Counted from the first letter of the stretch, positions 16,726 through 60,250 are shown. The stretch is DNA of 64,000 bases from Gammaproteobacteria bacterium (GCA_022824965.1 JAJDYY010000008.1:320284-384283); one strand, 5' to 3'. Numbers and translations are program-made. Notes: generated by a model from the letters alone, not told the origin.

Positions 16726-18663
16726 TCAGGTCCATACAGTCAGTGAATTTCTGAGTTGTCCAATCGGAAGGAAGTTCTCTTCACACCAACGGAAAAGATA
16801 GTGCCTAGGCTTTGTGGTCAGTACCTGATAAAGCGAGGCTGCCCACTGTCCCCACTCACCGTCGCACCTAGCAAGAATCAACGTGCGAAACATAAGGTTT
16901 GTAGCCTTTAAAGTCTTGGCATCTATCGGAAAATTGCCTGCCCATACTATTGGCTGTGCATTGGCCCAAATTGTATTGACAAAATCTGCAACGATTTTTG
17001 TATTGGATTGAATATCTGCATTTTCTCCACCCACATAGGTACATAGAGCTTCCAGTTGATTCAAGTCTCGGCTTTCATCCTGCTCGAACACTGAAAGAAG
17101 CACTGTGGTGCTTACAGACACATATCCGTGCCGATGCTGCGCGAGATAGACAGCTGCTTCAGCGTAAGATTCGGCAGATATAGTTCCTGCCTGTTCTGCA
17201 CTAAATATTGCAGCTTGAATCCAGACACCCCTTGTGGAAAAGGCTTCTTGGGAATATTGCCGAATTGCAAGGTCCTCACTAACAAGAACGCGGGTCTCGC
17301 CAGCCATAACACCCACACTGAAGGCACCATCTGGAGGAACACGAATCAATCTCTCGCCAAGTTCCGAAAGATTGTTTGGCAATTGCACAGGCTCTACTGA
17401 GCAGTATTCCTCAATGCTTTTTATCAATGACTGCACCGCACTGATCCGTTTGTTCCGGTCTTCAGTGGTTTCAGCATGTCGAAAGAATTGCCCGTCTCGA
17501 AAGTCAAGGCACATCGTATCGCCTTCACCCAGACCAGCATGATCATCGATCATCTCTTTTAGTCGGTTTAGCTCATAAACAGGAATTGCCAAGGGACCAA
17601 GTCGCTCTTTTAACACTGGCAGTACTTTAAGAACTGCTGCATGCCAAGCCGTAAAAGCATCGAGAACTGCACCAGCACGCTCATGTTTCTGGATCACTCT
17701 CAGTGCTTTATCACACTCATCGTGTACACCGAAGCAAACCTTCACTTCTTCGTTTATGGAAACTAGGTATTGCGCAAACGCTATTGCACCGCCTGGCCAA
17801 TCTCCTGCGGCAACAACAAGCGGGACGCCATGTTGCAAGTAGAGATCCGCCTGCTGCCGTGCCATCGCGCTATACCGACGGACTTGCTCCAACACCGGCT
17901 CTATATCATCATCGGCAATGTTTAATGAGGCAAATCCATGTGCTTCAGGAAATCTTTGTCCGAAGTTAGCCGTGAGATGGTGAAATGCCTGTAACCACCA
18001 TGGCTTTAGTTCAGCTACCGACCATGTCTCTTTGACACCTAATGAATTGGTTTTTTCAAACTTATCTCCTATCCTTAACCCCAAACATTTCAAAATGAAT
18101 GAATTGCTATCCGTTTCCGCTTGACCCCATGGTCTGTCCTGAGACTCTCCAATCAATGCTTCGTAATCGCTTCCTTCTGCACTTGTCAGCCGGACCCACA
18201 TACCAGTGCTGACAGTATCACCGATGCCAAGCTCTTGGTCCGATGAAGTTGCCCTCAGTACGAGACCCATAAACTTGAGCACCAGTTCTACATTTGAAAG
18301 GTCTGTGACAAGCGCTTCGTAAGCGATATCGAGAGCACATGCAGGCTCTTCTGAAAAGTCAAAAAGAACATGACTAAGATCGATGCGGTCCATCGAAGCG
18401 CCTGTCAAATTCTCGACTTCCAAACCACTTACCAATTGCCTGATTGCATCCTGGTCATCTATGGCGAAGTATGCCCTTACCACACACAGTAACGTGTAAA
18501 TCTCAGGCCCCTCCTCAAATGCACTCAACAGCGGCGTGATCGCTTTCCCAAAATCACCTTTGTTGAAATGTAAAATTCCTTCCAGCTTCTGAAAGAAGGC
18601 ATTGCATCGAAGATCTGGTGCCAAATCAGAAAAAACCTGGTTGCCCGCTCCCGTACAGGGAAG
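16726..18663 (-). pseudogene. C-terminal portion of a giant Mrr-like nuclease / TPR-repeat protein (downstream frame)
   Basis: 632-aa ORF with helical TPR-like repeat content. Its frame is open upstream to 18663 and overlaps the preceding ORF's frame by about 135 nt that includes an A6/T6 run at 18630..18635. It is probably one gene with the next entry. Confidence 0.5.
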
Positions 18664-20624
18664 TCAAATGCAAGAGCCGTAGCTAGTGTACGAAGTTCCC
18701 CACTGTCACGATCAAGCGCTATCTGTCCATGCAGTGTTTCTATAGTTACATCCAGTAGCCCACGTGCAAGTGCCTCTTCGGCCAGTGTAAGACGGGCAAT
18801 GTATGTGTCATCACCATTCTGAAATGCCAGAGTTGCCGATTCGAATAGTAACTGGGAAATATCTTCTATTCCACGAGTACGTGCTGACTGTGCAAGCACA
18901 GTTAATGCACGTGTATTGCCTACAAAATCTCTACACCCCTTCTCCAGAACGTCACGCACATCCGCTGGCTCCGCCAATTCCATTCGTGCAATAACACCCT
19001 TTGCCTGGACGACACTCTTCTCTGGTTCCGGAAATTGATCCAGGTTTTCATCTGCAAATTCCAAAATTTTAGGCCAGTCCTTATTTGCTATTGCAATCTT
19101 GAACCGAGCAGTAATAACTCCTTCAACATTGTCAGCAAGCCCTGAAATAGTCTCTGAGGCTTGGGCCATATGACCTTGGTCAATTAATAGCGATGCGAGG
19201 TGAACTTTTATGGTTTCTTCGTCGGGAAACCGTCCATGGGCCTGCAGGCCTAGATTGACAGCAGCTTCACTGTTTCCAACAATATGGTACGCCGTCATTA
19301 GATTCATCGGTACCGAAGATAAATCCTTACTGCAGTATATACTTCTCTCTTGAACGCTCTCCCATAACGACTCATATATTGAGATGGCTTCATTCACATC
19401 ATCAACATTACCCAAGGGCTGCCCGCACATGTATCGCTCCCCACCCATAGCCCTTGAAAGCAAGGCATTAGCGCCAAGTTCTTGCAATGCCGCAATTTCA
19501 GGAAATTGACGATAAGCGGATATTGCCTCATCCCACCAGGAATACGGCTCTCCCCGTTCCATGAGCCACTGCACATGAGCCTCGGCAACTTCAGGTGTAT
19601 TCCGAGTTTCTTCAGGTATTCGTGAAATCGGATCGTCAATTGATTCATCATGAATCAGACTTTGGAGATAACACGCTGCAAGGCGTGCATTGCTGGGTTG
19701 ATTCTTTAATTCTTCCTCAGCAAAACTTCTCACGTAATCTCGGTTTCCCAAAAGCAGGAACCCCAGCGCCTTGTTTGCGATTGCTTTAGGATTCTCGGGA
19801 GCAAAATCCCAGGCAGAAATCAATCCAGTAGCCGCTTCCCTTTTCTGCCCAAGTTCCAAGTGACATGCAGCGATGTTTGTTTTGACCCGAAATCGGATAT
19901 GATTTGATGCATCGGAGGCAAGCCTTTTCTCAAGCTTTTGCAGTAATTCAAGGGCGGTTTCAGGCTTACTTTGAATTAGTTCTACATAATCGTTAATGTG
20001 TTTTTCGTGTTCTGAATGAATAGCAGCAGAGTCCGCTATCGCTATTTCACTACTTCTTAAGGAAGCTACTTCTTGGTGACCTACCTCAATTTGGGGAGAC
20101 AGCATATCTGATACCCTCTCGGGGATGTCTCTAATAGCACTTTCTATTTGATCTATCTGCGGCGTATGCGATGGGTCAAAGGCCTTGTGGGCTTCAGGGT
20201 GGCGTTGAATTTCGCGTTGTAATTTATCCCATCCAAAAATATGGATATTGAGATCTAGAGGTCTGGATTTACTTATCTCAAACGAAAGTTTATTTGCCAG
20301 ACTTTGGAGGTTCGCATCGTCAGGAGCGGTTGTGACAATTACATACTCCGTAAGTGGTGGTTCAAATTCTAATGCCTTATTAACCTCAGCACGAACTTCT
20401 TGCTCTAGAAGCTCGCGCCCAACTGCCTTTAATTTACATTGAATGCCAACCGGGCGAGATACATCGCCATCACGATGACCAAAAATATCCACGCCATGCT
20501 GACTTTGTCCTTTGCGGCCGTATTTGCTGGCCATTGGATCGTTCAATAAACAACGCCACAACACCTCATTGCAGTCTTCGAAATCTTGTTCATAAAGTGG
20601 CTTTGGAATCTGTATTGCCATCAC
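18525..20624 (-). CDS. N-terminal portion: Mrr-cat restriction-endonuclease-like domain fused to TPR/helical repeats
   Basis: The N-terminus (FEDCNEVLWRCLL...GQSQHGVDIFGHRDGDVSRPVGIQCKLK...YVIVTTAPDDANLQSLA) matches the Mrr-cat PD-(D/E)xK layout, with a D in GVDI and QCK. The rest is TPR-like helical repeats. No Walker A motif is present. Confidence 0.6.
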   Translation of the reverse strand: MMAIQIPKPLYEQDFEDCNEVLWRCLLNDPMASKYGRKGQSQHGVDIFGHRDGDVSRPVGIQCKLKAVGRELLEQEVRAEVNKALEFEPPLTEYVIVTTAPDDANLQSLANKLSFEISKSRPLDLNIHIFGWDKLQREIQRHPEAHKAFDPSHTPQIDQIESAIRDIPERVSDMLSPQIEVGHQEVASLRSSEIAIADSAAIHSEHEKHINDYVELIQSKPETALELLQKLEKRLASDASNHIRFRVKTNIAACHLELGQKREAATGLISAWDFAPENPKAIANKALGFLLLGNRDYVRSFAEEELKNQPSNARLAACYLQSLIHDESIDDPISRIPEETRNTPEVAEAHVQWLMERGEPYSWWDEAISAYRQFPEIAALQELGANALLSRAMGGERYMCGQPLGNVDDVNEAISIYESLWESVQERSIYCSKDLSSVPMNLMTAYHIVGNSEAAVNLGLQAHGRFPDEETIKVHLASLLIDQGHMAQASETISGLADNVEGVITARFKIAIANKDWPKILEFADENLDQFPEPEKSVVQAKGVIARMELAEPADVRDVLEKGCRDFVGNTRALTVLAQSARTRGIEDISQLLFESATLAFQNGDDTYIARLTLAEEALARGLLDVTIETLHGQIALDRDSGELRTLATALAFDFPVRERATRFFLIWHQIFDAMPSFRSWKEFYISTKVILGKRSRRC

Positions 20625-21038
20625 ATTCTCTAGATAAACTGTCTAAGTTTGTCCTAAAATTTTTTCACCAAACTCGCATTGTTCACGTATTAGAATCTTC
20701 GAAGTCGTTACAATTATTTTGGGAATAGAATGGCTTGGTGCAACTTGGCCCTACCAGCAGACAGCCTTCTGAAGGATAATATAAAAAATTGTAGTGTACC
20801 GAGTTATACATGAAAAGGTTGTAGTCATGGCTTGCTCATCAAGTTCTCACACTCTCCAGGACACACAAACAATGATTATTGACTGCGGATTTATTGCTTT
20901 CTTCAAAGGCAAAGACAATTGGCTAGCCTTAAGCCGGTGCCTCAACACCAAGAACTTTAGCAGGGGAGGTTTTACTTGGACAAAGGCTTTGTACTCGATT
21001 TTTGTATCCATGCTTTGGGAAATATGAAAGGATAATCT

Positions 21039-21992
21039 GTGGGCCATATTTCATTTCAAGAAAAAGAATTCCGATCTGCTGACGAATTATGGGATGCACT
21101 GAGCCCTACCAACAAACTTGTTAGGTCACCAGGCCAACTAATTTACCGTGGACAGGAAAATGCAGAATGGGGCCTCATACCCTCTGTGTTACGGAAAAGC
21201 CCAAGCAATCCTGCAACAATTGCATGGGGTGATAACATAACGGCTGACAACCAAATAAGCACAGAAATTGTGCTACTTGAAACCTTCGCGGGCTTCTGTG
21301 ACCAAGTCGGAGTTAAAATACCTAATGACTCGTTGAAATTTCGAAAAAACGTGCTCGCAGCTGAGAGGCAGGATGAGTATTTCACCAACCCACAATCATG
21401 GCCGAATCCAGCCCTGATTGAAGTGATGGCTCTGGCGCAACAGCACGGAGTGCCAACAAGATTGCTTGACTGGACAAAGAACCCTTATGCGGCCGTATAC
21501 TTTGCGGCTAGTGGAGCCCTCTCAAATGTTGGGAAATGGGGTGAAACTACGGAAACTGATAAATTGGCAGTATGGGTATTGAATATCGATCGAATTTCTG
21601 TATTCCACAGAGTGAATGTTGTCCAGCCTCCTGGTGCAATATCTCCCCACCTTGCTGCCCAGGCTGGCTTGTTCACAGTCTACCCTCACAGCGGGAGCCT
21701 CGGAGAGCCGTTCAATGTCGTTGGGCTTGAAAATCAATTTTCCATACTCCCAGATACTCCTTTGATGAAACTTACGATTCCTGTACAGCAAAGTGCCAGA
21801 TTAAACTGGTTGTGTGCCAAGATTGGGATCACTGGTGCAAGTATTTTCCCTGGTGCTGATGGAGCCGGAAGAGCTGTTATGGACACAGTCAACTCATGGG
21901 CAGCAGCCCGTCACAGTTTACTCTATAAAGCCATGAATCAAATATCAAACAGTCCTGATTGCCAAGATGCAAACAAATCGTCTATCACATAA
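21039..21992 (+). CDS. FRG-domain protein
   Basis: LIYRGQENAEWGLIPSVLR and QHGVPTRLLDWTKNPYAAVYFA match the two signature blocks of the FRG domain (PF08867). Confidence 0.65.
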   Translation: MGHISFQEKEFRSADELWDALSPTNKLVRSPGQLIYRGQENAEWGLIPSVLRKSPSNPATIAWGDNITADNQISTEIVLLETFAGFCDQVGVKIPNDSLKFRKNVLAAERQDEYFTNPQSWPNPALIEVMALAQQHGVPTRLLDWTKNPYAAVYFAASGALSNVGKWGETTETDKLAVWVLNIDRISVFHRVNVVQPPGAISPHLAAQAGLFTVYPHSGSLGEPFNVVGLENQFSILPDTPLMKLTIPVQQSARLNWLCAKIGITGASIFPGADGAGRAVMDTVNSWAAARHSLLYKAMNQISNSPDCQDANKSSIT

Positions 21993-22096
21993 AACATATA
22001 CACTGGAAATTTTCCTTTCGTATGCCTGTGTAGCTTTCCCCGCGACAGGCCTAAGGTGTAGATGATGGTTTACAGAAACTAGAAAAAGGAAATCAA

Positions 22097-22450
22097 ATGC
22101 AACGTGATGATGAATATATCAGAGACCTTCTTTTTGAAATTGAGAAGCAAGACAACTTCCTAGTGATGATTCTTGATACACTTGACGCTTCTCCTGCTGA
22201 AAGAAAAAAATTGTATCACGCTCAGCTTTTATGTGATGCAGGTTACATGATTCAGGTAAGTAATGCAGGCTATCGGTTGACATCTCAAGGACACGACTTC
22301 ATTTCGTCCATCAGGGACGAAGGTATATGGAATAAAACTAAGGCAGCAGTTGCTGAAACAGGTGGTAATGTAACCCTTGAGGTTATAAAAAGTCTTGCTT
22401 ATGGATTCCTCAAGAAGAAAATTTCTACTCATACTGATATAGAGTTATAA
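22097..22450 (+). CDS. DUF2513-family small protein
   Basis: 117 aa: MQRDDEYIRDLLFEIE...LYHAQLLCDAGY...LTSQGHDFISSIRDEGIWNKTK fits the DUF2513 family pattern. An RBS (AAAAAGGAAA) lies 7 nt upstream. Confidence 0.6.
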   Translation: MQRDDEYIRDLLFEIEKQDNFLVMILDTLDASPAERKKLYHAQLLCDAGYMIQVSNAGYRLTSQGHDFISSIRDEGIWNKTKAAVAETGGNVTLEVIKSLAYGFLKKKISTHTDIEL

Positions 22451-23357: not shown

Positions 23358-26300
23358 TCACACCATTTCTTCGGATAACATCTTTGCCTGGGTTAGTACT
23401 AACTCAACCGCACCTTTCTGCTGATCGGGAGGGTATTTGTATTTCCGTAGTAACTGACGAATGAGAATTCTCAGTCTTGCCCGAACACTTTCACGAACTG
23501 CCCAATCCACAGTCAGGTTTTCCCGCAGTTTTTTTGCAATCTCCCTGGCTATCTCAACGAGCACGTCCTCGCCCATCAATTCCTGTGCAGACTCATTCTG
23601 AGCAAGGGCATCATAAAAAGCCTCTTCCTCATCCGACAGATCATGGGCTTCCCTTCGCTTCAGGTCTTCCTGGAATTGCTTCGCCATGGCGATGAGCTCT
23701 TCAATCACCTGTGCCGCTTCAATCGCACGGTTCGCGTACTTACCGATGGATTTCTCGAGAAGCTCACTGAATTTACGTTGCTTGACAACATTGGTGCGGA
23801 ACCTGGTTTTGACCTCGCCCTTAATGAGTCTTTGCAGAAGTTCTACTGCCAGATTCTTGTGCGGCATCTTCATCACTTCTTTCAGGAAATCATCCGAAAG
23901 AATGGAGATATCCGGAGACTCCAGGCCTGCGAGTCTGAAAACATCGGATACGCCCTCACCCACGATTGCCTGGGACAGCAATTGCCGTAATTCAAAGTCC
24001 GTATCTCGAGGTGGCTTCTCTCCGCTTCCGCCTTTTACGAGTGGTGCACGCACTGCCTGATGAAATGCCACTTCAGGGGCCAGTTCCATGGCTTCATCCA
24101 GGGTTCCGCACAATGCAAAGGCCTTAGTCAATTGCAGGACGGTATCGCAGTACCTGCGCTTGCCGTCTTCCTGTTCAAGCACATGATCCATGCAGGCCGG
24201 GATGATCTGAAGCGCGTTTATCCTGTACTCACTCCAGTCCACAGGGTGTAGCAGGTCTCGTGCGACCTGGATCTTCTCTTTAAGGATCCGTAACGCTTCA
24301 GATGAATCAATCGTCGGTCTGCCCTTCCCTTTTGCCGCACTGTAGGTTGCCAAAGCCTCCCTGAGTTGCGGGGCAATGCCGATGTAATCCACCACCAGCC
24401 CACCGGGTTTGTCCTTGAAGACACGATTCACCCTTGCAATGGCCTGTGCCAGATTCGCGCCCTGCATTGGTTTGTCGACATACATGGTCGCAAGACAGGG
24501 TGCATCAAACCCGGTCAGCCACATGTCTCGAACAATAACAATCTTGAGAGGGTCTGAAGGATCTTTGAAACGCTTCTCAAGGTCTTTCTTCTGTGCACGG
24601 CTGGTATGGTGAGGTTGAAGTTCCAGCTTGTCGGATGCAGATGCCGTCATGATGACTTTTATTGCTCCGGACATGTGATCATCAGAATGCCATTCAGGAC
24701 GCAGGGCCACGATCTGGTCATACAGCCTGGCACATATCATACGAGACATGGTCACGATCATGGCTTTGCCAGGCTGTGTCTGACTGCGCATCTCGTAGTG
24801 ATCGATCAGGTCAACCGCCACCTCCTTCAGGCGTGTATCCGTTCCAACGATTGCCTCCAATGCGGACCACTGGCTCTTGGCTTTCTCTTTCTCCTGCTCA
24901 TCCGCTGTCTCACTGTCCAGAATCTCTTCCACTTCCTCATCGATTTGAGGAAGCTCGGCCTGGTTCAGGTTGATCTTGGCCAAGCGTGATTCATAGTAGA
25001 TCGGAACGGTAGCGCCATCATCCACGGCCTGCTGGATGTCGTAGACTGAAACGTAGTTGCCAAAAACCGCTTGGGTGTCGCGATCATCCTGGGAAATAGG
25101 TGTTCCGGTGAACGCGAGGAACGTCGCATTGGGCAAGGCGTCACGCAGGGACTTGGCCAGACCATACTTGATGGCCCCACTCTCGCTATCAATTTTTGCT
25201 TTGAACCCATATTGAGTCCGGTGTGCCTCATCCGCGATCACCACAATATTGTGACGATCCGTGAGCACGGGGAATCGCTCCTCATCCGCATCCAGACCGA
25301 ATTTCTGCATGGTTGTAAAGAAGATGCCGCCCGAAGGCCGATCCATCAAATGTTCCCGCAGTTCTGCACGGGAATCAGCCTGTTTGGGCGTGTCGTTCAG
25401 TAGTTCGCCTGAATTCGCAAAGACATTAAACAACTGGCCATCCAGATCCCTTCTGTCTGTAACCATGACAATGGTGGGGTTCTCCAGCCGAGGCTCCGAG
25501 ATCAAGCGCCCGGCCAGACACGCCATTTCGATACTTTTTCCAGCACCTTGTGTATGCCAGACTACTCCGCCTTTCTTGTCACCCTCCACGTTGCTCGCAG
25601 TCACCACGCTCTCGACTGCTACTTGTACGGCATGGAACTGGTGATAGCCGGCAATCTTCTTGATGAGGGTTCCGTCATCTTCAAATAGACAGAAGTACCG
25701 CAGGTAGTTGAGGAAGATTTCCTTGTTGAAAACTCCCTGGATCAGGGTCTCGAGCTGCTGGTGCTGGCCTAGGGGGTCCAGTTCGACACCATCAATGGTG
25801 CGCCACCGCATGAATCGTTCCCTGTCTGCGGAGATTGACCCCAAACGTGCGTAGATACCGTCTGATATGACCATACAAACGTTATAGCTGAACAGGTCCG
25901 GGATATCCGCCTTGTAAGTCTGTAACTGATCGAATGCGGTCCAGATGTCCGCATCCTCATCCGCACCATTCTTGAGTTCAATGACGGAAAGTGGCAACCC
26001 GTTTACAAACACCAATACATCTGGCCTGCGGTTATGTTTGTGCCCTTGGATCGTGAACTGATTGACGACCAGCCAGTCATTGTTCTCCGGGTCTTCAAAG
26101 TCAATTACTTTGAGTTGTTTGCCGACTTCCTGGTTATCTTCGTGGAAAGTGACCTGGATGCCTTTGGTCAGCCACTCATGCACTTTCCGGTTGCAGGGCA
26201 TCAATGCCGGGATGTTCGGGTTAGTCAATTGAGAAAGTGCCGTGCTGATTGCAGATTTCGGGATATCAGGATTGATGCGAGTCAGTGCTTCCTGCAAGCG

Positions 26301-26447
26301 ATCTTGAAGAATGACTGAACGGTAGTCTTTGCGTTCCGGTTCCTGACCATCCGGGGCAATTTCATACCCGCACTTGTACTGATAGCCGAGTTCCTTAAAC
26401 CAGTCGATGCTTAACAGTTCAACTTGATCTTCGGTCACCAGCGCCAC
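23358..26447 (-). CDS. hsdR: Type I restriction enzyme R subunit
   Basis: 1029 aa with an N-terminal PD-(D/E)xK nuclease region (PDVLVFVNGLPLSVIELK) and SF2 helicase motifs (HTQGAGKS, VIADEAHR). Confidence 0.9.
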   Translation of the reverse strand: MALVTEDQVELLSIDWFKELGYQYKCGYEIAPDGQEPERKDYRSVILQDRLQEALTRINPDIPKSAISTALSQLTNPNIPALMPCNRKVHEWLTKGIQVTFHEDNQEVGKQLKVIDFEDPENNDWLVVNQFTIQGHKHNRRPDVLVFVNGLPLSVIELKNGADEDADIWTAFDQLQTYKADIPDLFSYNVCMVISDGIYARLGSISADRERFMRWRTIDGVELDPLGQHQQLETLIQGVFNKEIFLNYLRYFCLFEDDGTLIKKIAGYHQFHAVQVAVESVVTASNVEGDKKGGVVWHTQGAGKSIEMACLAGRLISEPRLENPTIVMVTDRRDLDGQLFNVFANSGELLNDTPKQADSRAELREHLMDRPSGGIFFTTMQKFGLDADEERFPVLTDRHNIVVIADEAHRTQYGFKAKIDSESGAIKYGLAKSLRDALPNATFLAFTGTPISQDDRDTQAVFGNYVSVYDIQQAVDDGATVPIYYESRLAKINLNQAELPQIDEEVEEILDSETADEQEKEKAKSQWSALEAIVGTDTRLKEVAVDLIDHYEMRSQTQPGKAMIVTMSRMICARLYDQIVALRPEWHSDDHMSGAIKVIMTASASDKLELQPHHTSRAQKKDLEKRFKDPSDPLKIVIVRDMWLTGFDAPCLATMYVDKPMQGANLAQAIARVNRVFKDKPGGLVVDYIGIAPQLREALATYSAAKGKGRPTIDSSEALRILKEKIQVARDLLHPVDWSEYRINALQIIPACMDHVLEQEDGKRRYCDTVLQLTKAFALCGTLDEAMELAPEVAFHQAVRAPLVKGGSGEKPPRDTDFELRQLLSQAIVGEGVSDVFRLAGLESPDISILSDDFLKEVMKMPHKNLAVELLQRLIKGEVKTRFRTNVVKQRKFSELLEKSIGKYANRAIEAAQVIEELIAMAKQFQEDLKRREAHDLSDEEEAFYDALAQNESAQELMGEDVLVEIAREIAKKLRENLTVDWAVRESVRARLRILIRQLLRKYKYPPDQQKGAVELVLTQAKMLSEEMV

Positions 26448-28057
26448 TAGATATCTACCTCTTCAAGAAACTTTTCGGCATCTGAAATGTGGAGTTCACC
26501 CGAGATAAGCCTAGGGAGGAGAATATCGCGGAGCTGGGAAAGACAGTCATTTTCTTGACTCGCAATCTTAATTTTTGCAAATATTGGAAAGCTGATTTCT
26601 TCATAAATTGACATCACGTAATCAGACGGGCGGATCAACTTAAACCTATCAATATCTGATTTACCCAAATGAATGACTGTGGTCGCCGTCTCTGTAGACT
26701 CAACTTCATAAAGCGGTCTTTCCAGCCCGAACTTAAGGAAAGCAGTGGGGATATTTGTATTTGGGATAAATTTACAGATTCGCTGGTTCATCCAAGAGTC
26801 CTTTCCTGTCCAGTAATAACACCTAAATTCACCATCCATCCCGACAACTAGGTCACCTGCTTTGATTAAAGTTCCTTTTGGATGTGCTTCTTCTGTAAAA
26901 ACTTCTGATCCACCTTTTGCAAGGTCTCTAATTCTCACAAGAGGCAATCCTCGCCTGTCAGAATTAAACAACTTGGACTTAAATGGCGCTCCATAAATTA
27001 CTTCACACAAATCGTAGATTGAAGCAATACTCCACCCCTTTGGGATCTCCCCAATCTCCGACTCCACCAAAGTATCAGGGAATAAATCACTGATTTCAGA
27101 CGGAAGACCCGTAGGATGGCCTTCTGCCTTTGCTCGGACAGGGTCAAAGTCAACAAACCATGATTTGAAGATTGCCTTGGCTATCTCTTCAAGGGTTTTG
27201 TTGGTTTTTTGGTTGAGTTCGATTTTGTCGTCGAGGGTGCCGAGGATATGGGCGATGGCACGTTGCTCGGAAAGAGGTGGAAGAGAAATAGCTATATGGT
27301 CTAAAGCTTCAGCAGGCACGCGTTGGCGCCCTGAAGTACCAGTCATCTGACCAATCGCATACTCACGAAACCTGTTCCATCTCGTCAGGTAGTAGGCGAA
27401 ACCACCATCTGTGACATCCGGGCGCCCACGGATAACTATAAATTCGGTAGAGCCATGTGCTGATATCATCTGCTTTGTAGCGTTGTAGCGAGCAATCTTG
27501 CCATTCTCAAGACATGGCGTGATTCGAGCCATGAGCGTGTCGCCATCTAGGAAGCGAGAGCCCCCACCTCTGAATTCACGCTCTTCTATTGCATACGTAT
27601 TTCTTGAATCTCCGTTGATAGCAGCCATGCCAACAAAAGGGTAGGTCTCGCCGCGGACAAGTTGCACCTTCGGATTAACCTCAACCGCTTGACTGAAAGG
27701 CACCTCACACCAATCTGAACTGCTTTCCGGGACAGGAAAAAGTGTTTTGTGCTCTTCTATAACCTGCCTAAAGCCACCACTGACTCGATTCATGTCCACG
27801 ACATCAACTGTATAAGGAAGGCTGGAGTCTTCGAAAGCATCCTGCAGTATATTGATCGTCCTGAAGTCCAACGGCGTATCGCCCTCGACTGCTAAATCAA
27901 GATCAGACGAATCTTTTGTTGTCCAAGTGGCACGGCTGCCAAATACCCATACCTTCACATCACTCGGCAAGTGAGTGCACAGGATATCCTGCACAATTTT
28001 CAAGTGGTCAGAACGAATATCAACGGAACTAACCAAGGGTCCGATTCTTCTTCTCAA
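26447..28057 (-). CDS. hsdS: Type I R-M specificity subunit HsdS with an in-frame N-terminal MNT-type nucleotidyltransferase (HI0073-like) domain
   Basis: Residues 1 to about 100 carry the NTase motif VFGSRATWTTKDSSDLDLAV plus LPYTVDVVD (MNT antitoxin-like). The remainder has two TRDs and the conserved HsdS central and C-terminal coiled-coil repeats. No stop or obvious internal start separates the two parts. Confidence 0.75.
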   Translation of the reverse strand: MRRRIGPLVSSVDIRSDHLKIVQDILCTHLPSDVKVWVFGSRATWTTKDSSDLDLAVEGDTPLDFRTINILQDAFEDSSLPYTVDVVDMNRVSGGFRQVIEEHKTLFPVPESSSDWCEVPFSQAVEVNPKVQLVRGETYPFVGMAAINGDSRNTYAIEEREFRGGGSRFLDGDTLMARITPCLENGKIARYNATKQMISAHGSTEFIVIRGRPDVTDGGFAYYLTRWNRFREYAIGQMTGTSGRQRVPAEALDHIAISLPPLSEQRAIAHILGTLDDKIELNQKTNKTLEEIAKAIFKSWFVDFDPVRAKAEGHPTGLPSEISDLFPDTLVESEIGEIPKGWSIASIYDLCEVIYGAPFKSKLFNSDRRGLPLVRIRDLAKGGSEVFTEEAHPKGTLIKAGDLVVGMDGEFRCYYWTGKDSWMNQRICKFIPNTNIPTAFLKFGLERPLYEVESTETATTVIHLGKSDIDRFKLIRPSDYVMSIYEEISFPIFAKIKIASQENDCLSQLRDILLPRLISGELHISDAEKFLEEVDI

Positions 28058-28466
28058 GCTGTATCAAGAGATAACGTGATTCTGCGAGAAAGTCAGGAGC
28101 ACTGTTTAAAACTTCTTGTGCCTTCTGTTCATCATACGTATGACTTGTGGTGCCTCTGTTGCGGCGATACTCTCTCCAAACAACAAGTTCAGCCTGCACT
28201 AACGACTGTTTGGATGCCTCACGTATCACATCATTAAAAGACATGTCGTCAACCTCTACAGGATTAGCAGAAGCTAGTTCCAGGTAGCGCTTAATCATTT
28301 TAAAGGACAACTCATAGGTAAATTCAAAAGCTTGAATTACAGCCGCCCTCATATGTCGCTTGAGACGAGGCTCAGCCATTGTCAACTCTGAATCATATAT
28401 CTCAAGAGCCTCTTCTAGTTGTGAAATGGCTTGTTTCAACGACGACAGGTCCAAAGGCAAAGGCAT
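28029..28466 (-). CDS. HepT-like HEPN toxin (HI0074 / NTase substrate-binding family)
   Basis: 145 aa with an intact Rx4HxY HEPN motif (RGTTSHTY) and HI0074-family N-terminus (LSSLKQAISQLEEALE). It overlaps the MNT::hsdS start by 29 nt. Confidence 0.7.
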   Translation of the reverse strand: MPLPLDLSSLKQAISQLEEALEIYDSELTMAEPRLKRHMRAAVIQAFEFTYELSFKMIKRYLELASANPVEVDDMSFNDVIREASKQSLVQAELVVWREYRRNRGTTSHTYDEQKAQEVLNSAPDFLAESRYLLIQLEKKNRTLG

Positions 28467-28544
28467 CTTTTATCTCCAATATGTAGGATATGAGCTAGTT
28501 GTTTCTCAAAAGTGATGCACGACTTATTTTCACGTCATCTCAGG

Positions 28545-30101
28545 CTATCCTGATCTTGCAAACCCCAACTTTTTTAGGTTTTCAGCGATAGTCTGATCAA
28601 GCTGAGCACCTTCAACCTGCTGCGTATGCAGTTGCGCAGCCAAGTGTCTCATCTTGTCTTCGAAAGGCTCACCGTCATCCTCTTGTGGCGCAGCCCCAAC
28701 ATAGCGTCCAGGTGTGAGGACAAATCCACTCTTCTCAATCTCATCAATGGATGCCGACTTACAAAAACCCAATACATCCTCGTACTCTTCTCCCTGCTTC
28801 CACGCATGCACTGTATCTGCAATCTTGGCAATGTCTTCGTCAGTCAGGACCCTGTTGACCCGTGTCTCCATCGTTCCCAGCTGACGCGCATCAATAAACA
28901 AGGTCTCCTCACGCCTGCCACGACCATTCGCAGTCTTGTCATTAGTCATAAACCACAGGCATACAGGAATCTGTGTGTTCAGAAACAACTGGCCCGGCAG
29001 TGCTACCATCACTTCCACCACATCACCACGGATCATTGCCTTACGAATCTGGCCTTCGCTGCTTGCGTTCGAACTCATGGAACCATTTGCAAGGACAACG
29101 CCGACCTGTCCTCCTGGTCGCAGCTTCCACAGCATGTGCTGCAGCCATGCGAAGTTTGCATTCCCCACAGGGGGTCTGCCGTATATCCAGCGAGGATCTT
29201 CCTCATACTTCTCTCCACCCCAGTCAGAAATGTTGAAGGGTGGATTTGCCATGATGTAATCGAACTTCAAATCCGGGAACTGGTCCCGTGCAAAGGTATC
29301 CGCGGGTTCTTTACCTAAATCTGCAGCAAATCCCCGAATCGCCAGGTTCATGGCGGCCAGCCGCCAGGTTGTAGGGTTGCTCTCCTGCCCGTAGATGGAG
29401 ATATCGTCCACCCGGCCACCATGTGACTGCACAAACCTTTCACTCTGAACGAACATCCCGCCTGACCCGCAACAAGGGTCATACACCCGACCAGTATGCG
29501 GCGAGAGGATGGCCACCAGGGTTTTCACTACATGTGAAGGGGTATAGAACTGCCCACCCTTCTTGCCCTCGGCTGAGGCAAACTGACCCAGGAAGTACTC
29601 GTAGACCTCGCCCAGCAAGTCACTGGAGTCGTATTTGTCACTGAATCCGATGGTGGAGATCAGATCAATCAGCTCACCCAGTACCCCCGGACCCAGCTGT
29701 GCCCGCCCGAAGCGTTTGTCCAGCTTCCCCCGCAGGGATGGATTTTCGTTCTCTATCAGGGTCATTGCCTTGTCCACAAGGGACCCAATATCAGGTTGCT
29801 TTGCCTTGGCTCTGAGAGATTCCCAACGTGCCTCTTGTGGCACCCAGAAGACATTGTCTTGTGTGTAATAGTCACGCTCCTCAAGCGCTTCTTCGAACTC
29901 AGCAGGGGTTTCGCTTAAAAAATATTCAGACGAGGGCTCTGACACCATGCGCCGGATTTCTTCCTGCTGCTTAATGAAGGTGTCTGAGATGTATTTGAGA
30001 AAGATGAGGCCCAGCACGATGTGCTTGTACTCCGCTGCATCCATCTGCGCGCGAAGCTTGTCCGCAGACGCCCATAACTTTTTCTTTAAGTCATCACCCA
30101 T
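28545..30101 (-). CDS. hsdM: Type I R-M DNA methyltransferase subunit (N6-adenine)
   Basis: HsdM N-terminal domain ([32 protein letters not shown]), AdoMet motif I (DPCCGSGGM) and NPPF catalytic motif. Confidence 0.92.
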
Positions 30102-30166: not shown

Positions 30167-30722
30167 CTATGGGAATTTAGCCGAACTTCCTAGATCGGGA
30201 TTTTTCGAATGCCGTATGAAAGGCATCCTCAATGTCCTTTGCAGCCCCCTTGTAGCTGGCCCTGCCACGCCGACTTGGGTGTGGGACACAGAAGAGTGAG
30301 CCGGAAAAACGAAGGTGCTGCGCTGCCTTCTATGCCCACCGCCCCTGTGCGATCACGGCAACTGGCAGTGCAATATCCAACAACTGCTGGCAAAGAGGTA
30401 TATTTTCATTAATTGCCTTCATACTAGGCTTCTCACCATATGCTCCAAAAGCATTCCATGGGGTGATGACAGATTTGGGAATACCCAGCCGATCATAAAG
30501 CGATTTACACCATTTGGCCGTCGAATCATTATTTTCGACATCGACGAAGCCCGAAACCACTGCACCGGAACCAGGTGTATGGACATTGCCGCCGGGGTCT
30601 TGTAACAGACTAAAAATTCCACCAGGTGATTCAGCGTGACCTTTTCCGATACGTGGCATCACAATACCTCGTTGCTCAGCGCTTTGGACAATGATGGCAT
30701 TCAACTTATCGTGAACTGTCAT
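30167..30722 (-). pseudogene. UDG-superfamily (MUG/family-2-like) protein disrupted by a frameshift
   Basis: The 130-aa ORF 30330..30722 shows UDG-like blocks (HTPGSG, LGIPKSVITP, LPVAVIAQG). A second frame continues for 51 codons (…FVFPAHSSVSHT…, resembling the MUG VLPNPSGLS motif) to a stop at 30167..30169. The frames switch within a C4/G4 run at 30342..30345. Confidence 0.4.
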
Positions 30723-30890
30723 ACAGGTTGGTTAAATACAGGTTATGGTTTTGTTATTTTAGCAAGCTGATTAGTATCGGGGTGGGTGGAGCAGGTACTG
30801 CACAAACATCACAACCCAAAATTATCTACTACCCTTTGTTTCCGTTAATCAGAGTTGGTTCACCTAACGGGAGATGAGGCAAGATTACTC

Positions 30891-31940
30891 ATGTACAACA
30901 AGAACTATGAAGGTAAGGCATGTGATGCCGTCGTGAAAGCCATCGAGAAGCGAACGGGCAAAATACGTGCACACATTCGCCGTCCCGAGGTGGATGGAGT
31001 CGGTCCGCCGGTGGATTTGCGCTTGAAGATAGGAGCCCAGGAGTATGTGATCGAGCACACGCGAATCGAGCTGTTCGAGAATCAAATCAAGATGGAAGTA
31101 ACCATCAGAGAGATCCTTGACTACTTCAAGGAAAATCTCTCACTGCCATTCCCGAGCCCGGCGTACTACGAGTTGCAATACCCAATTGACGTTTCATTGC
31201 CAGACGGAAAAGTCAAACGCAATCGTGCTTTGAAGAGCCTCGCAGACTGGGTATGCATGAATGAAGGGTTGCTGCGAGACAAGATGATGTGTTGGCCCGA
31301 GGGACCCTATGATCTCTACTATTCTGATCATTCTGTGTGTGGCAAGCCGGATGGTTTTTATTGTGCATTCGAATTGCGTCGCTGGCCAGATGCCGTCTCT
31401 ATCAGACAAAAACCCGGTTCTCTTTGGTCAAGACCGATTTATCCGGAAGATATGAACCCTCTGATAAGAAAAAGGCTGATGCGGGCATTTTCCAGGAAAT
31501 GCAAAAAGCTTGAAGCGTGCAAGATGGATGGGGCGCGGACGGTCCTGGTACTGGAAAGCGGGGGTCCAGGACTCACACATTTTAAGTTCAGGGGTGACCT
31601 CCTTCCAGGGATATTGGCAGAACACAAAAATGCGCCGGATGAGATTTTTCTGGTGCAGACCTATCACGATCTCTGGGAGGTCGTTCCCTTGAAGCATGGC
31701 AACGGTCATTGGCCTGATACGGGCATGCCTGAACTAGGCGGGTCTTATTACAATCTAAACAACTCTGACATTCCAAAATGGTTGGACAGCCTGCCTCGAC
31801 CTATGCGTGAGGGCCTGCAGCTGGATCGAATGCACATACCCTATGAACAGGGATTTGCATTTGAAAGCTTTGAGAAAGGTGAACTGAGTGACCTGACCCA
31901 AGCGAGACGGACAGAAATACAGACAGGCAATGGCACATGA
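30891..31940 (+). CDS. Hypothetical protein of about 349 aa, no recognisable domain
   Basis: Long uninterrupted ORF with the start set at the ATG at 30891 (the ORF track starts at TTG 30855). The N-terminal EVDGVGPPVDLRLKIGAQEYVIEHTRIE could be a degenerate PD-(D/E)xK-like element, which is speculative. The C-terminal half is rich in Trp, Pro and His. Confidence 0.5.
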   Translation: MYNKNYEGKACDAVVKAIEKRTGKIRAHIRRPEVDGVGPPVDLRLKIGAQEYVIEHTRIELFENQIKMEVTIREILDYFKENLSLPFPSPAYYELQYPIDVSLPDGKVKRNRALKSLADWVCMNEGLLRDKMMCWPEGPYDLYYSDHSVCGKPDGFYCAFELRRWPDAVSIRQKPGSLWSRPIYPEDMNPLIRKRLMRAFSRKCKKLEACKMDGARTVLVLESGGPGLTHFKFRGDLLPGILAEHKNAPDEIFLVQTYHDLWEVVPLKHGNGHWPDTGMPELGGSYYNLNNSDIPKWLDSLPRPMREGLQLDRMHIPYEQGFAFESFEKGELSDLTQARRTEIQTGNGT

Positions 31941-32044: not shown

Positions 32045-32257
32045 TCACACCTGCTGCCTGGACTCGATCCATTGGATCACTGTGTGTTCATGCCAGCCGA
32101 CCGAGCGTGCACCGGTCAGCTTGATCTGTTTGGGAAAATCACCCTTGGCGATCTGGGCGTAAATCGTGGAGCGGGAAAGTCCGGTCATGCGCTGGACATC
32201 CTTCAGTCTTACAATCCTGTAGTTCATAGTAGGTTCCTCATACTTTTTTGGTTGCAA
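32045..32257 (-). CDS. alpA: AlpA-family prophage regulatory protein (excisionase-like)
   Basis: MNYRIVRLKDVQRMTGLSRSTIYAQIAKGDFPKQIKL shows the HTH typical of Phage_AlpA. The start may be the internal Met at 32227. Confidence 0.8.
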   Translation of the reverse strand: MQPKKYEEPTMNYRIVRLKDVQRMTGLSRSTIYAQIAKGDFPKQIKLTGARSVGWHEHTVIQWIESRQQV

Positions 32258-32266
32258 TCTTCACAG

Positions 32267-33133
32267 TCATCTTCCTAGGTAGGCTGTGCTGATCTGTTCT
32301 CTCTCGTGGCCGAGTTCCTGGCTGATCGTCATCCGGGCCTGGTGGTCCAGCTCCCGCTGTTCCGGGGTCAGTGACTTGCTATCGGGCCCACCTGCGGCTG
32401 GAGATTTCCAGCCAGTCAGTTCCTCGTAGCGTTCCTGTGCGTACGCATGGCGCAGCCCATGCATACTCGAAAGTCCGGCCCGGGTGGTGTTGCCTTCGTA
32501 GACTCTCAGCTGCTGTACATAGCTTCGGTGCGGCGGGATCAATGAGCCGAAGCCAGCCAAGGCCCGTGTGCGGTCAAGGATCGCTCTTTGATGTTCTGTT
32601 CGAACGGGGATCGTTCGGAGCTTGCCGCCCTTGGTCCAGCTGGCCTTGAGCCGGAGGTGATCCTTCTGATCCGCATAACTGGGCATGAACTTCATGGCCT
32701 CCTCGCGGCGCAGCCCAAAGGCCCGCTGCAGTTCGAGACTCATGCGCACATGAATGTCCTTGACCTTGCTGAGTTGGGTTTGGGTGATGTCCTTGGCTTT
32801 ACTCTCGTTGGTGACGAACCTTCGGTCCGGGATGCCATAGAATTCATTGGATCGGGCGATGACGTTCTGCTTGTTGACCTTGTCGGCCCACCATCTCAGT
32901 GCAGCCATCCGGTTCTTGATCGTCCCGATCGAGAGTTCCTTTTCCTGCCACTGCTTCACCAGCGCCTCGATGTGCTTGGGCTTGAGTGATTTTGACTGCA
33001 TCTTGCGGTAGCCCATCGCATGCAGCTCATTGGCCATCAGCGTCAGCATGCGCTCTCTATTTCGTTGCGTGGCATAGCTGCCTTCCCGGCAGTGCCGGCA
33101 AAGCTGTTTCAGCTGGTGATTAAGATTTCTCAT
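32267..33133 (-). CDS. Tyrosine recombinase / integrase-family protein (second recombinase of the island)
   Basis: HGLRHAYAQ (HxLRH box) and C-terminal STAYLGR (catalytic Tyr). The start is set at the MRNLNHQ ATG at 33133. Confidence 0.7.
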   Translation of the reverse strand: MRNLNHQLKQLCRHCREGSYATQRNRERMLTLMANELHAMGYRKMQSKSLKPKHIEALVKQWQEKELSIGTIKNRMAALRWWADKVNKQNVIARSNEFYGIPDRRFVTNESKAKDITQTQLSKVKDIHVRMSLELQRAFGLRREEAMKFMPSYADQKDHLRLKASWTKGGKLRTIPVRTEHQRAILDRTRALAGFGSLIPPHRSYVQQLRVYEGNTTRAGLSSMHGLRHAYAQERYEELTGWKSPAAGGPDSKSLTPEQRELDHQARMTISQELGHEREQISTAYLGR

Positions 33134-33514
33134 GGTTCCAAGCCTTTCCGTGTTCTTTCTCTTCGGTGAGTGTTTCTGGCCTTCTGTCCGCCTTGGCGGT
33201 TCAGGTTCGCTTTCGCGACATGGCTCCATGGGACACAACTCCCTCAATGACTTGAATGGGCCTCAGTCAGGCCACACAGGTCCTCTTCGGTCGAAGAGTG
33301 ACTCCGTGCCAGTCCAAGATGCCCCAAAGGGGCGACAGTTCAAGATGGTGATACCTCCTTTTCAGTCATGCGGATCGCTCCGCGGGATTTAAAAAATAGC
33401 CCGGTGCACAGCATTCCTGCCTGGTCCCGAAGACCAGACCGGGGTGCCGTTCACGGGCTTAGATAAATGTCACGTACAGGCGAACCCGCACGTGCCGACA
33501 GGCAGAATGCCTTG

Positions 33515-33638
33515 CGTTGAAGATGGACAAGCCCGAAGCCTGCCTGAAGTCCTGTCAGGACGTTGAAGATGGAAGCAGGCCAAAGACCTGAATCCTGATG
33601 CCTGGGTACCGCTGTACACAGGCTGGTATTGAAGATGG
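33515..33638. repeat. Three direct copies of (G/A)TTGAAGATGGA (iteron-like)
   Basis: Copies at 33515..33526, 33561..33572 and 33627..33638, with spacings of 46 and 66 bp, inside the 860-bp non-coding region between the two recombinase genes. Confidence 0.55.
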
Positions 33639-33872
33639 ATCGCAGCCTTGCGGCTGGGGCACCTGTTGCGCGATCCGGAGGCGCCTCGTTGCCGCTGATA
33701 TACCGTAGCGGCACCGGTACAAAACTGTTACGGGTCAGTATACCACCCGGCGCCTCTCAGTCACGGAAAATCTTCTTATCACTGAGCTAAATATTTCGAC
33801 ACCGTAATTTACGGGGCATTCAGCTCTCAAAAACGCACAGTACGGGGCTACCTGCCTCGGAGCCCTGCAGGC

Positions 33873-33922
33873 GGCCGTGTCACTCCTGCGTTTCACTTCG
33901 TTCACCAAGGAGTGACACGGCC
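33873..33922. promoter_or_regulatory. Perfect 14-bp inverted repeat (GGCCGTGTCACTCC / GGAGTGACACGGCC) with a 22-nt loop
   Basis: Seen directly in the sequence. A strong stem-loop or dimeric protein-binding site in the recombinase intergenic region. Confidence 0.5.
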
Positions 33923-34112
33923 TAGTACGTGAATGTCCAGCTCGTTGTATGACCTTTCCTAGCCTACGGTTGCACAGCAGACTTGCCGGGGCTACCAAGT
34001 CGCCTGCATACGGTATGGGGCTGTACACAAAAGAATGCGTTGGTTTTAGCGCGCGGCTATCGCTTGCCAGTCACGGTGCAGCTTACAGAGGGCAAGTTCG
34101 TGGAACAGATAT

Positions 34113-35303
34113 TCACGTGTCGGCTTTCAACTCGTCGAGATAGTCTGCCCATACCTGCATCATCTCTCTTCGCTCTGGCAGATGGGCAGTGCGGTTGTAA
34201 GCACGCCCGTTTGGATCACGCACACTGTGGGCAAGTTGGTGCTCGATATAGTCTGGACGAAACTTGAGCACCTCATCCAAGATCGTTCGTGCCATCGCCC
34301 GAAACCCATGGCCGCTCATCTCCTCCTTGCCAATCCCCAGGCAGCGCATAGCAGCCAGAATGGCGTTATTGCTCATTGGTCTGTCGCCCTTAGGACTCCT
34401 TGCGCTGGAAAATACATACTGACCATTTCCGGTCAAAGGTCTTAATTCCCGCAAAATCTCAACAGCTTGTCTTGAAAGAGGTACGATGTGTTGGGTCCGG
34501 GTTTTGGTCACCTGAAAACGCCACTCGGCATTATCCATATCCATATCCTCCCACTGTGCGTTGCGGAGTTCGCCAGGGCGTACAAAAACCAGCGGCGCAA
34601 GCCTAAGAGCGCAACGTACAGGGAGTGTTCCCTCGTAACCATCGAGTGTCCTCAGGAGTTTCCCTACTTCTTTGGGCTCAGTGACTGAAGCAAAGTGCTT
34701 CCCTTTCACAGGGGGCAATGCGCCCTTCAAGTCTCCCGAAGGGTTGTACGTGGCGCGACCAGTGGCAATCGCATAGCGAAAAACCTGGCTGCAGTAGCTT
34801 AGCACCCTATAAGCAGTTTCCAGTGCCCCACGCTGTTCGATCCGCTGAACTGTCTCAAGTAGTTGGGGTGCTGTAATTCTAGTAATCGGCCGACTGCCAA
34901 TCCATGGGAATACATCTCCTTTCAGTCTACTAATGACGCGAGTCGCATGGCCAGAAGACCAGTGGGGTGCATACTTGGCAAACCATTCATTTGCAAGGGC
35001 CTCGAAACTGTTCGTTGTCTCTTCAGCTTTTGCAGCTTTTTCTGCCTTGCGCTGCTCGCTCGGGTCGACTCCGTTCACTAGCAGCTTGCGGGCCTCATCA
35101 CGCCTAGTACGTGCATCCTTCAGCGTGACATCGGGATAAACACCTAGCGAGAGGCGCTTCTCCTTCCCTTCAAAACGGTACTTCAAACGCCACCACTTTC
35201 CTCCGTGGGGCGCAACTTCCAGGTACAGCCCACCGCCATCAAACAGCTTTCTAGCTTTTTCACCAGCCTTGGCATTTCGGATTGCAGCATTGGACAAGCT
35301 CAT
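34113..35303 (-). CDS. int: P4/CP4-57-type tyrosine integrase
   Basis: MSLSNAAIRNAKAGEKARKLFDGGGLYLEVAPHGGKWWRLKYRFEGKEKRLSLGVYP is the classic P4-integrase N-terminus. The C-terminal catalytic region carries HGFRAMARTIL and an LAHS tail. The gene is adjacent to the tRNA 3' end. Confidence 0.9.
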   Translation of the reverse strand: MSLSNAAIRNAKAGEKARKLFDGGGLYLEVAPHGGKWWRLKYRFEGKEKRLSLGVYPDVTLKDARTRRDEARKLLVNGVDPSEQRKAEKAAKAEETTNSFEALANEWFAKYAPHWSSGHATRVISRLKGDVFPWIGSRPITRITAPQLLETVQRIEQRGALETAYRVLSYCSQVFRYAIATGRATYNPSGDLKGALPPVKGKHFASVTEPKEVGKLLRTLDGYEGTLPVRCALRLAPLVFVRPGELRNAQWEDMDMDNAEWRFQVTKTRTQHIVPLSRQAVEILRELRPLTGNGQYVFSSARSPKGDRPMSNNAILAAMRCLGIGKEEMSGHGFRAMARTILDEVLKFRPDYIEHQLAHSVRDPNGRAYNRTAHLPERREMMQVWADYLDELKADT

Positions 35304-35466
35304 GGGGGCAACTTCCCTTATGAATGGTGTGCTTGCCCCCAATTCTGCCCCCAGTTGCCCCCGGATGTCAATAAATCTCAAAGGATCACTTTGGACGCAA
35401 TACCACTGTAAGTGTATGATTATATGAATATATTAGGATGTTATAGGACGTCTTTGGACTTTGACT

Positions 35467-35543
35467 TGGTGGCTATGGTTGGACTTGAACCAACGACCCC
35501 AGCATTATGAATGCTGTGCTCTAACCAACTGAGCTACATAGCC
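35467..35543 (-). tRNA. tRNA-Met (anticodon CAT, elongator-like)
   Basis: GGCTATGTAGCTCAGTTGGTTAGAGCACAGCATTCATAATGCTGGGGTCGTTGGTTCAAGTCCAACCATAGCCACCA on the minus strand. It has a cloverleaf with a CAT anticodon loop and an encoded CCA. Confidence 0.85.
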
Positions 35544-60103: not shown

Positions 60104-60154
60104 CTAAGTACTCGTATCGCAGCAGAGCAAAAGCGCATCCCAAGAAATTTCTGC

Positions 60155-60250
60155 ATTTAAGCTTCCCTCCGCCAGCATGATCTGGTTCAGGTTCCAAGGG
60201 TCACTCTCAGCCCGTGATCCACAGCGGGGCACCCCCAGCCTCAGAGCCTG
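60155..60250 (-). ncRNA. TPP (THI-box) riboswitch in the thiC leader
   Basis: The minus-strand sequence GGGGTGCCCC...GGGCTGAGAGTGACCCTTGGAACCTGAACCAGATCATGCTGGCGGAGGGAAGC contains the CTGAGA, ACCTGA and GCTGGCGGAGGGAA THI-element cores, upstream of the thiC ATG. Confidence 0.85.

Follow-up and report, generated by a model that had tools for sequence, protein, structure and literature searches.

The DNA stretch JAJDYY010000008.1:320284-384283 of a Gammaproteobacteria bacterium (GCA_022824965.1), hereafter the window (64,000 nucleotides), raises the question of what is encoded by a single gene lying beside a type I restriction-modification (R-M) operon. This gene (the target; 30891..31940, plus strand) begins with an ATG at 30891, ends with a stop codon at 31938-31940 and codes for a protein of 349 amino acids (aa), ~40.2 kDa and an isoelectric point (pI) of 7.1. 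The sequence-only reading of the window had described a clean open reading frame (ORF) of about this length on the strand opposite the R-M genes, which was confirmed, as hsdM, hsdS and hsdR are all located on the minus strand. We found that the target is the long form of a large, conserved, foldable and unannotated family of horizontally mobile single genes, whose members reside on islands, integrative and conjugative elements (ICEs) and plasmids, next to unrelated defence systems, without an obligate partner and not on phages. We give slightly less than an even chance to the reading that the protein is a stand-alone conflict module, serving defence or addiction, whose chemistry would be metal-dependent hydrolysis, most plausibly of nucleic acid; the nuclease detail is held at lower confidence than the rest.

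The existence of the family was established by homology searches. A search of 5.8 billion proteins yielded 232 homologues at E<=1e-3, of which those listed were 43-90% identical to the target and nearly all 330-350 aa long; none of the listed close homologues possessed a Pfam domain or a name. By a profile search of 1.84 billion cluster representatives, the family was extended to 1277 clusters (defined at 50% identity) at E<=1e-3, and 778 clusters satisfied even E<=1e-10. Most of the distant members comprise 280-300 aa and cover profile positions 1-275 only, and for this reason residues 1-275 were set as the core of the family. Because homologues of 45-90% identity keep the length of the protein, the ORF can be regarded as a real coding gene that is under selection. 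A GGGAG-like Shine-Dalgarno sequence resides 10-20 nt 5′ of the ATG. A longer product of 361 aa, starting at the in-frame upstream TTG at 30855, was disfavoured since the homologues align from the ATG.

All source names of family members read "hypothetical protein". The target sequence did not match Pfam, PADLOC, NCBIfam, PHROGs or PDB sequences, neither as a single sequence nor as a profile, which agrees with the earlier statement that no motif could be assigned to it, and a Pfam scan of 10 distant family members was likewise negative. In a lenient Pfam scan (E<=10) of 49 N-terminal fragments only DUF2997 recurred (residues 4-33, 5/49, best E 0.006), a weak match that we judged uninformative. 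A TAL-effector match in the PDB profile search was dismissed as a repeat artefact, and a literature search by accession numbers retrieved no paper. Neither its sequence nor, as described below, its fold relates the family to a known one. The designation of the gene as an orphan holds for its annotation and has to be given up in the sense of a lone oddity, since the family spans the above-mentioned 1277 clusters. One metagenomic record, P0285 (575 aa), consists of an MmeI-like type IIG N-terminus, with a D…ExK nuclease and a "GEYYTP" methylase motif, joined to a family member from residue ~60 to its end. It was rejected as an informative domain fusion, being a chimera of the type IIG N-terminus with a 5′-truncated family member that probably goes back to a rearrangement within a defence island.

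Residue conservation was counted over 114 aligned diverse relatives. Approximately 30 positions reach a conservation of 80% or more, with E, D, H, K and C dominating, a composition typical of a catalytic site. The conserved positions include E7, C11, D12, E19, R26, P32, [D/E]42, E55, H56, T57, E60, W120, K203, K206, L207, E222, D225, P249, D250 and W262. The first of the conserved blocks is helix alpha-1 (residues 7-22; 30909..30956, plus strand), in which E7 and C11 are each found in 96%, D12 in 81% and E19 in 95% of the relatives. It is followed by a beta-hairpin motif (31014..31070, plus strand; strands 43-47 and 50-59) made up of residue 42, always acidic (63 E, 50 D), the triplet E55-H56-T57 (113, 112 and 113 of the 114 sequences, respectively) and E60 (99/114). 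This motif contains the D…E-x-x-I-E-H stretch (D42…E51-Y-V-I-E55-H56) that the sequence-only reading had taken for a possible degenerate nuclease element; it proved to be the most conserved element of the family, well beyond what chance would produce, and the degenerate nuclease is only a lead. Further downstream, the end of a helix with K203-x-x-K206-L207 and the strand "TVLVLES" with E222 form another conserved block (31497..31565, plus strand), with K203 and E222 each present in 111, K206 in 110 and D225 in 103 relatives. The strand "P249-D250-E251-I-F-L-V" together with W262 (31635..31676, plus strand) is the last conserved block of the core. The C-terminal extension of ~70 aa (HWPDTGMP…; 31716..31937, plus strand), which is acidic with a pI of 4.6, belongs to the long-form subfamily only and is absent from the short forms of 280-300 aa; within the long-form subfamily W274, G278, M279 and P280 are invariant or nearly so.

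The AlphaFold2 model of the target, calculated with 112 sequences, is compact and reached a predicted local distance difference test value (pLDDT) of 89.3 and a predicted template modelling score (pTM) of 0.84. Its N-terminal elements are a helix at residues 7-22, strands at 26-30, 43-47 and 50-59, a helix at 65-82 and a strand at 92-98. This predicted alpha-beta-beta-beta-alpha-beta order fits the core of PD-(D/E)xK nucleases such as the archaeal Holliday-junction resolvase Hjc, which the protein also resembles in the Glu of helix 1, in the acidic residue 42 just ahead of strand beta-2 and in E55, which lies with H56 and T57 within strand beta-3 of the hairpin. The spacing of these acidic residues is close to that of Hjc-type enzymes. 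From the register of the hairpin, we infer that the side chains of residues 42 and 55 face the same side. The N-terminal 104 residues, however, do not behave as an independent domain; modelled alone they gave a pLDDT of 87 and lost strand 4 (92-98), and the family core extends to residue ~275 with a second invariant cluster of K, E and D. Foldseek searches with the full model (PDB, BFVD) and with the N-terminal model (PDB) did not reveal any match at E<=0.001. The best match in BFVD was a local one of 82 columns to an AAA/RecA-like protein (probability 0.66, E=0.03). The Walker A motif GxxxxGK[ST] is absent from the target sequence and from the family consensus, and with RAD51, KaiC and DnaB matching at template modelling (TM) scores of ~0.1-0.17 only, a P-loop or RecA-like ATPase was rejected. 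So was an internal duplication, as hhalign comparisons of residues 1-104 with 105-228 and with 186-275 gave probabilities of 1-2%. The nuclease idea, which rests on topology and motif geometry, is our leading mechanistic guess and implies no family assignment.

The genomic surroundings of the family were studied at 37 long-form loci from a scan of one genome per species, almost all of them metagenome-assembled genomes (MAGs). Their hosts belong to the Gammaproteobacteria, Arenicellales, Latescibacterota, Gemmatimonadota, Acidobacteriota, Alphaproteobacteria, Thermodesulfobacteriota and Binatia; the distribution is patchy across phyla, and a genome may contain up to three copies. Across 37-47 loci neither all-vs-all BLAST of the neighbours nor comparison of the upstream ORFs disclosed a conserved partner up- or downstream, and a family-wide one was not obtained either when AlpA, the HTH_17 protein and the DUF3800 partner served as jackhmmer queries. 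Locus L001, whose homologue is 80% identical, shares with the window the side harboring AlpA, the integrase and ychF and has a different R-M allele. In locus L002 (74% identity), hsdM, the 130-aa ORF and the target correspond to those of the window, their DNA being 80% identical; the other flank contains a gene for a 1014-aa SNF2 helicase directly downstream of the homologue. As L001 and L002 each keep a different flank, the target is the constant element between changing flanks, and in both loci it is linked to type I R-M despite the differing opposite flank.

Type I R-M genes within 10 kb were found at 6 of ~47 loci (the window, L001, L002, L020, L021 and L025), hsdM being the gene near the family member in L021 and L025. 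We rejected the possibility that the target is a type I R-M subunit: it has no similarity to Hsd proteins and is encoded on the opposite strand, and three of these six loci are related. A type II toxin-antitoxin pair was rejected as well, since adjacent ORFs are non-homologous across loci and the sole recurrent partner is a 368-aa DUF3800 protein in one subfamily. Tallied as raw counts over ~35 loci, neighbours of the conflict or mobile type comprised five Mutator transposases, three HSDR_N and two Gp49 toxin genes, besides N6_Mtase/HsdM, an MmeI-type IIG enzyme, a ZorD match, DruA and integrases. The SNF2 helicase of L002 is the likely source of the ZorD match. At L047 a gene for an Mrr_cat_2-helicase lies directly downstream of the homologue, and on the Sphingobium plasmid pYBL2-3 the homologue resides between a Hachiman system (DUF1837 and helicase) and a SLFN_AlbA_2 gene.

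In this respect the gene is similar to the single-gene candidates of PADLOC termed PDC-S, which likewise stand alone, have no obligate partner and reside in variable islands among R-M and further defence genes. Homology to PDC-S51 (DUF3800) or to any other PADLOC model is lacking, however, and the family and DUF3800 genes also occur without each other. Type IV and other solitary restriction endonucleases show comparable features: they comprise ~300-350 aa, lack a methyltransferase of their own, lie beside R-M genes and diverge fast outside a small catalytic core. In contrast to them, the target has no recognisable Mrr, McrA, McrB, GmrSD or SRA domain, its family is far better conserved in length and sequence than restriction enzymes typically are, and most members are not located beside an R-M gene. 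Rpn/YhgA-like recombination-promoting nucleases, which are PD-(D/E)xK proteins, are likewise ~300 aa in size and patchily distributed; a genome may contain several of them in diverged form, and their N-terminal region is nuclease-like. Their motifs differ from those of the target, and Pfam scans of the target and its relatives did not return this or any other family.

A closer association was detected for short forms of the family. In an island of Sphingomonas, which contains AAA_23, nSTAND3, SLFN and TIR genes, and in a Rhizobium/Agrobacterium island with a P4-type integrase, a type IIG R-M enzyme, HNH, SIR2 and AAA_23, the short-form homologue overlaps the start of a gene for a 368-aa protein, an arrangement of translational coupling (L048 and L055, 6001-7982). 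This 2-kb pair is the sole DNA common to both otherwise unrelated islands, with 74.6% identity. The 368-aa protein is a match to the PADLOC candidate PDC-S51 at E=1e-96 to 1e-99, and numerous homologues of it bear the annotation DUF3800 (PF12686). DUF3800 is an RNase-H2-like effector of type VII retrons (PMC7736814). The data suggest that the short form and the DUF3800/PDC-S51 gene constitute a mobile two-gene module. The pairing is not obligate, as members of the family are missing from the surroundings of the DUF3800 homologues in Bradyrhizobium and Roseobacter, and the window does not contain a DUF3800 gene. In the literature library searched, no paper mentions PDC-S51, and an experimental test of this candidate is not known to us.

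The family is associated with mobile elements no less strongly than with defence genes. A homologue on a conjugative plasmid of Bradyrhizobium adjoins a PrlF antitoxin gene and traC/traD, and another one in Microvirga has RepC and an integrase in its vicinity. Transposases of the DDE type and of the Mutator family are often located nearby. In one subfamily, the homologue occupies the leading position of a conserved ICE segment that also contains Toprim_3/DUF7146, ParB_N and Prok_Ub/E2. Furthermore, two MAGs contain several copies of a segment measuring at least 11 kb, among whose genes the homologue comes first; there are three copies in OZ241875 (L006, L007 and L009) and two in CBDBEV010000001 (L004 and L008), with ~92% identity. 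The segment begins ~430 bp 5′ of the homologue and continues for at least 10 kb on its 3′ side, where a 239-aa HTH_17-like protein and giant cadherin-like/Calx-beta proteins are encoded, and may be an uncharacterised multi-copy element. Together with the position of the target next to AlpA and integrases in the window and in L001, these arrangements would also fit a protein that serves the mobile element itself, i.e., a maintenance, establishment or anti-defence protein of ICEs acting, for example, on DNA, be it incoming or of the host, or on defence factors of the host. We consider this explanation unlikely. The protein is not similar to known anti-restriction, partition or replication families, many loci show no element genes within 4 kb, and the 2-kb block pairs the homologue with a defence-type DUF3800 gene rather than with transfer genes. 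The family is also rare on plasmids, with three matches in 72,556 sequenced plasmid records, and absent from phages: neither a tblastn search of 50,697 phage records nor IMG/VR gave a relative. Homology to a phage structural or housekeeping protein, which had been named as an observation that would speak against a defence gene, was looked for and not found, as there was no match in PHROGs or in the phage collections and the distribution is patchy and multi-copy.

We therefore return to the conflict module and to how it could work. According to this proposal, the target would be a stand-alone, horizontally mobile accessory enzyme carried as cargo of the integrative defence island at tRNA-Met. 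It would act either as a single-protein defence against phages or other mobile elements or by an addiction-type toxin activity. The active site may be composed of E7, C11 and E19 of helix alpha-1, of [D/E]42, E55, H56 and T57 of the hairpin and of the C-terminal cluster K203/K206/E222/D225/D250. The enzyme would then be a metal-dependent hydrolase of nucleic acid, nuclease or phosphodiesterase-like, and the C-terminal extension of the long form could be a built-in regulatory or sensor part that replaces a partner gene. A more far-reaching version regards the target as the founding long-form member of an unrecognised single-protein immune or conflict family with a new catalytic fold and the signature E-x3-C…E…[D/E]…E-H-T…K-x-x-K…E-x-x-D…P-D, which has spread horizontally across at least six phyla and acts alone by means of its C-terminal module or, in the short forms, with the RNase-H-like DUF3800/PDC-S51 partner. 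This version is rather doubtful.

Several findings, from the structural comparisons, the loci and the sequence of this copy, weigh against a nuclease-like conflict enzyme. The position of the catalytic Lys of the PD-(D/E)xK signature is occupied by Thr (T57 in E-H-T, 113/114 relatives); possibly, the Lys is supplied from K203 or K206 instead. An invariant Cys such as C11 is unusual for these nucleases, from which the family also differs by its invariant His. Foldseek comparison of the full model with the PDB gave nothing better than E=0.027, and the PD-(D/E)xK entries Hjc, AF1548, SfsA and the R2 endonuclease domain appeared only at E ~0.5-0.9 with TM scores below 0.3. The sole nuclease matching the N-terminal 104-residue model in the PDB was RecU/PrfA on rank 42 (E=5). 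Nuclease families were not detected by Pfam and NCBIfam in the target, the 10 distant relatives and the 49 N-terminal fragments (E<=10), nor by PDB profiles, and the PADLOC-DB v2 models did not recognise the target or five diverse homologues as any family at E<=0.01. The missing lysine and the fold without a nuclease neighbour, together with C11 (96%) and H56 (98%) being conserved as strongly as the carboxylates, would also suit an enzyme that is not a nuclease. With C11 close to where a helix begins and H56 on a strand, it might be a hydrolase or transferase of the Cys-His type, or else a protein with a Cys/His/Glu metal site acting on protein, nucleotide or a small molecule; the AAA/RecA-like match in BFVD hints at a Rossmann-like, nucleotide-binding C-terminal half. 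We regard such an enzyme as quite improbable, since Walker A, a recognisable peptidase or transferase motif and a matching Pfam family are all missing, and the cross-strand acidic pair and the further invariant Glu and Asp residues of the model would suit metal-ion catalysis better than thiol catalysis.

On the side of the loci, the window, L001 and L002 are related islands and do not represent independent observations, and the ICE backbone-like placement of one subfamily fits element maintenance or anti-defence equally well. Moreover, many loci exhibit only metabolic, transporter, cadherin or ankyrin neighbours. The copy in the window carries G at position 225, where ~90% of the relatives have D, and I at position 192 instead of the R of most relatives, and may therefore be impaired or weakened. 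These data could also be explained by an ordinary accessory or housekeeping protein without any conflict role, whose adjacency to R-M is an incidental hitch-hiking in a variable region and whose copy in the window is maybe decaying. At about two thirds of the loci the neighbours are metabolic, transporter or surface-protein genes with no recognised defence gene within 4 kb, and the neutral to acidic pI of the family agrees with this explanation, too. It has in our opinion a small probability. An ordinary protein would hardly occur patchily across phyla at 45-55% identity, in multiple copies per genome, as identical proteins in several species and in a tight cassette moving between islands, and the family recurs beside unrelated defence systems. 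A recent decay is argued against by the intact ORF and by P0001, which is 90% identical and also has G225; this residue is limited to the target and 3/111 aligned homologues, among them P0001. The proposal of a single-gene defence candidate made for this gene receives moderate support from the context, namely from the lack of a partner, the absence from phages, the recurrence in islands and mobile elements and the co-transfer with PDC-S51, and is weakened by the many loci with metabolic neighbours only.

In the window, a low-GC defence island on an integrative element, ~19 kb in size (roughly 16.7-35.4 kb) and adjoining tRNA-Met, carries the target as cargo. The guanine-cytosine (GC) content amounts to 49.9% for the gene and 48.8% for the island vs 60.4% and 57.7% for the flanks; the AT-rich context noted before thus holds in relative terms. 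Upstream of the target, a divergent intergenic region of 168 bp (30723..30890), presumably containing its promoter and ribosome binding site, separates it from a 130-aa ORF on the minus strand (30330..30722). No library contained a match to this ORF. A conserved counterpart exists in L002 alone, broken up there into two frames, and the ORF may be either a genuine small gene or a gene in decay. At the target locus, promoter scans gave weak matches whose count was not above that of shuffled sequence, terminator matches did not exceed the shuffled-sequence level, Rfam had no match, and inverted or direct repeats flanking the gene were found at chance level only.

The type I R-M operon (23358..30101, minus strand) is composed of hsdM (28545-30101), a HEPN-like gene (28029-28466), which overlaps the start of the next ORF, an MNT-HsdS ORF (26447-28057) and hsdR (23358-26447), all on the minus strand. 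In the MNT-HsdS ORF, an MNT-type nucleotidyltransferase (residues 15-106) continues in frame into a full HsdS. Thus, an MNT/HEPN pair is embedded in the operon, apparently with MNT fused to HsdS. A similar ORF of 539 aa exists in L001, and HsdS of L002 has 430 aa without the nucleotidyltransferase. On the other side of the target lies the integration module (32045..35543, minus strand), which contains, likewise on the minus strand, AlpA (32045-32257), two tandem integrase genes, one of the PF12834/PF12835 type (32267-33247) and one of the P4 type (Arm-DNA-bind_3/Phage_int_M/Phage_integrase; 34113-35381), and tRNA-Met (35467-35543) neighbouring the insertion site of the island. An attachment-site direct repeat of the tRNA-Met 3′ end was not found at the far island end or within the window. 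Further conflict-type cargo is located at 16726..22450. The region 16726-20624 (minus strand), which forms the far end of the island, encodes a 632-aa protein whose PIN domain is that of the "TPR-GreAB-C-PIN" system (PIN-TPR-GreABC; PF20698, E=4e-15), preceded by an overlapping gene for a 699-aa TPR protein; this pair resembles a predicted conflict system. Between it and hsdR, the plus strand at 21039-22450 encodes an FRG-domain protein of 317 aa and a DUF2513 protein of 117 aa. Elsewhere in the window, at 60147-60246 (minus strand), a thiamine pyrophosphate (TPP) riboswitch was identified (Rfam RF00059, 65.9 bits).

A lone unannotated gene in a defence island is a familiar kind of finding, and many such candidates exist. 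The present family is at the same time an annotation blind spot, being large and confidently foldable without a Pfam or NCBIfam entry or a structural neighbour, and many genomes and MAGs would be better annotated once it is defined. Should the family serve element maintenance or be ordinary cargo, its value would be limited to this annotation. If its members are defence or conflict enzymes, PDC-S51/DUF3800 would gain a possible functional partner, and a widespread effector with more than 1000 clusters in many phyla would be added, whose fold and active-site signature are not recognised by current databases.

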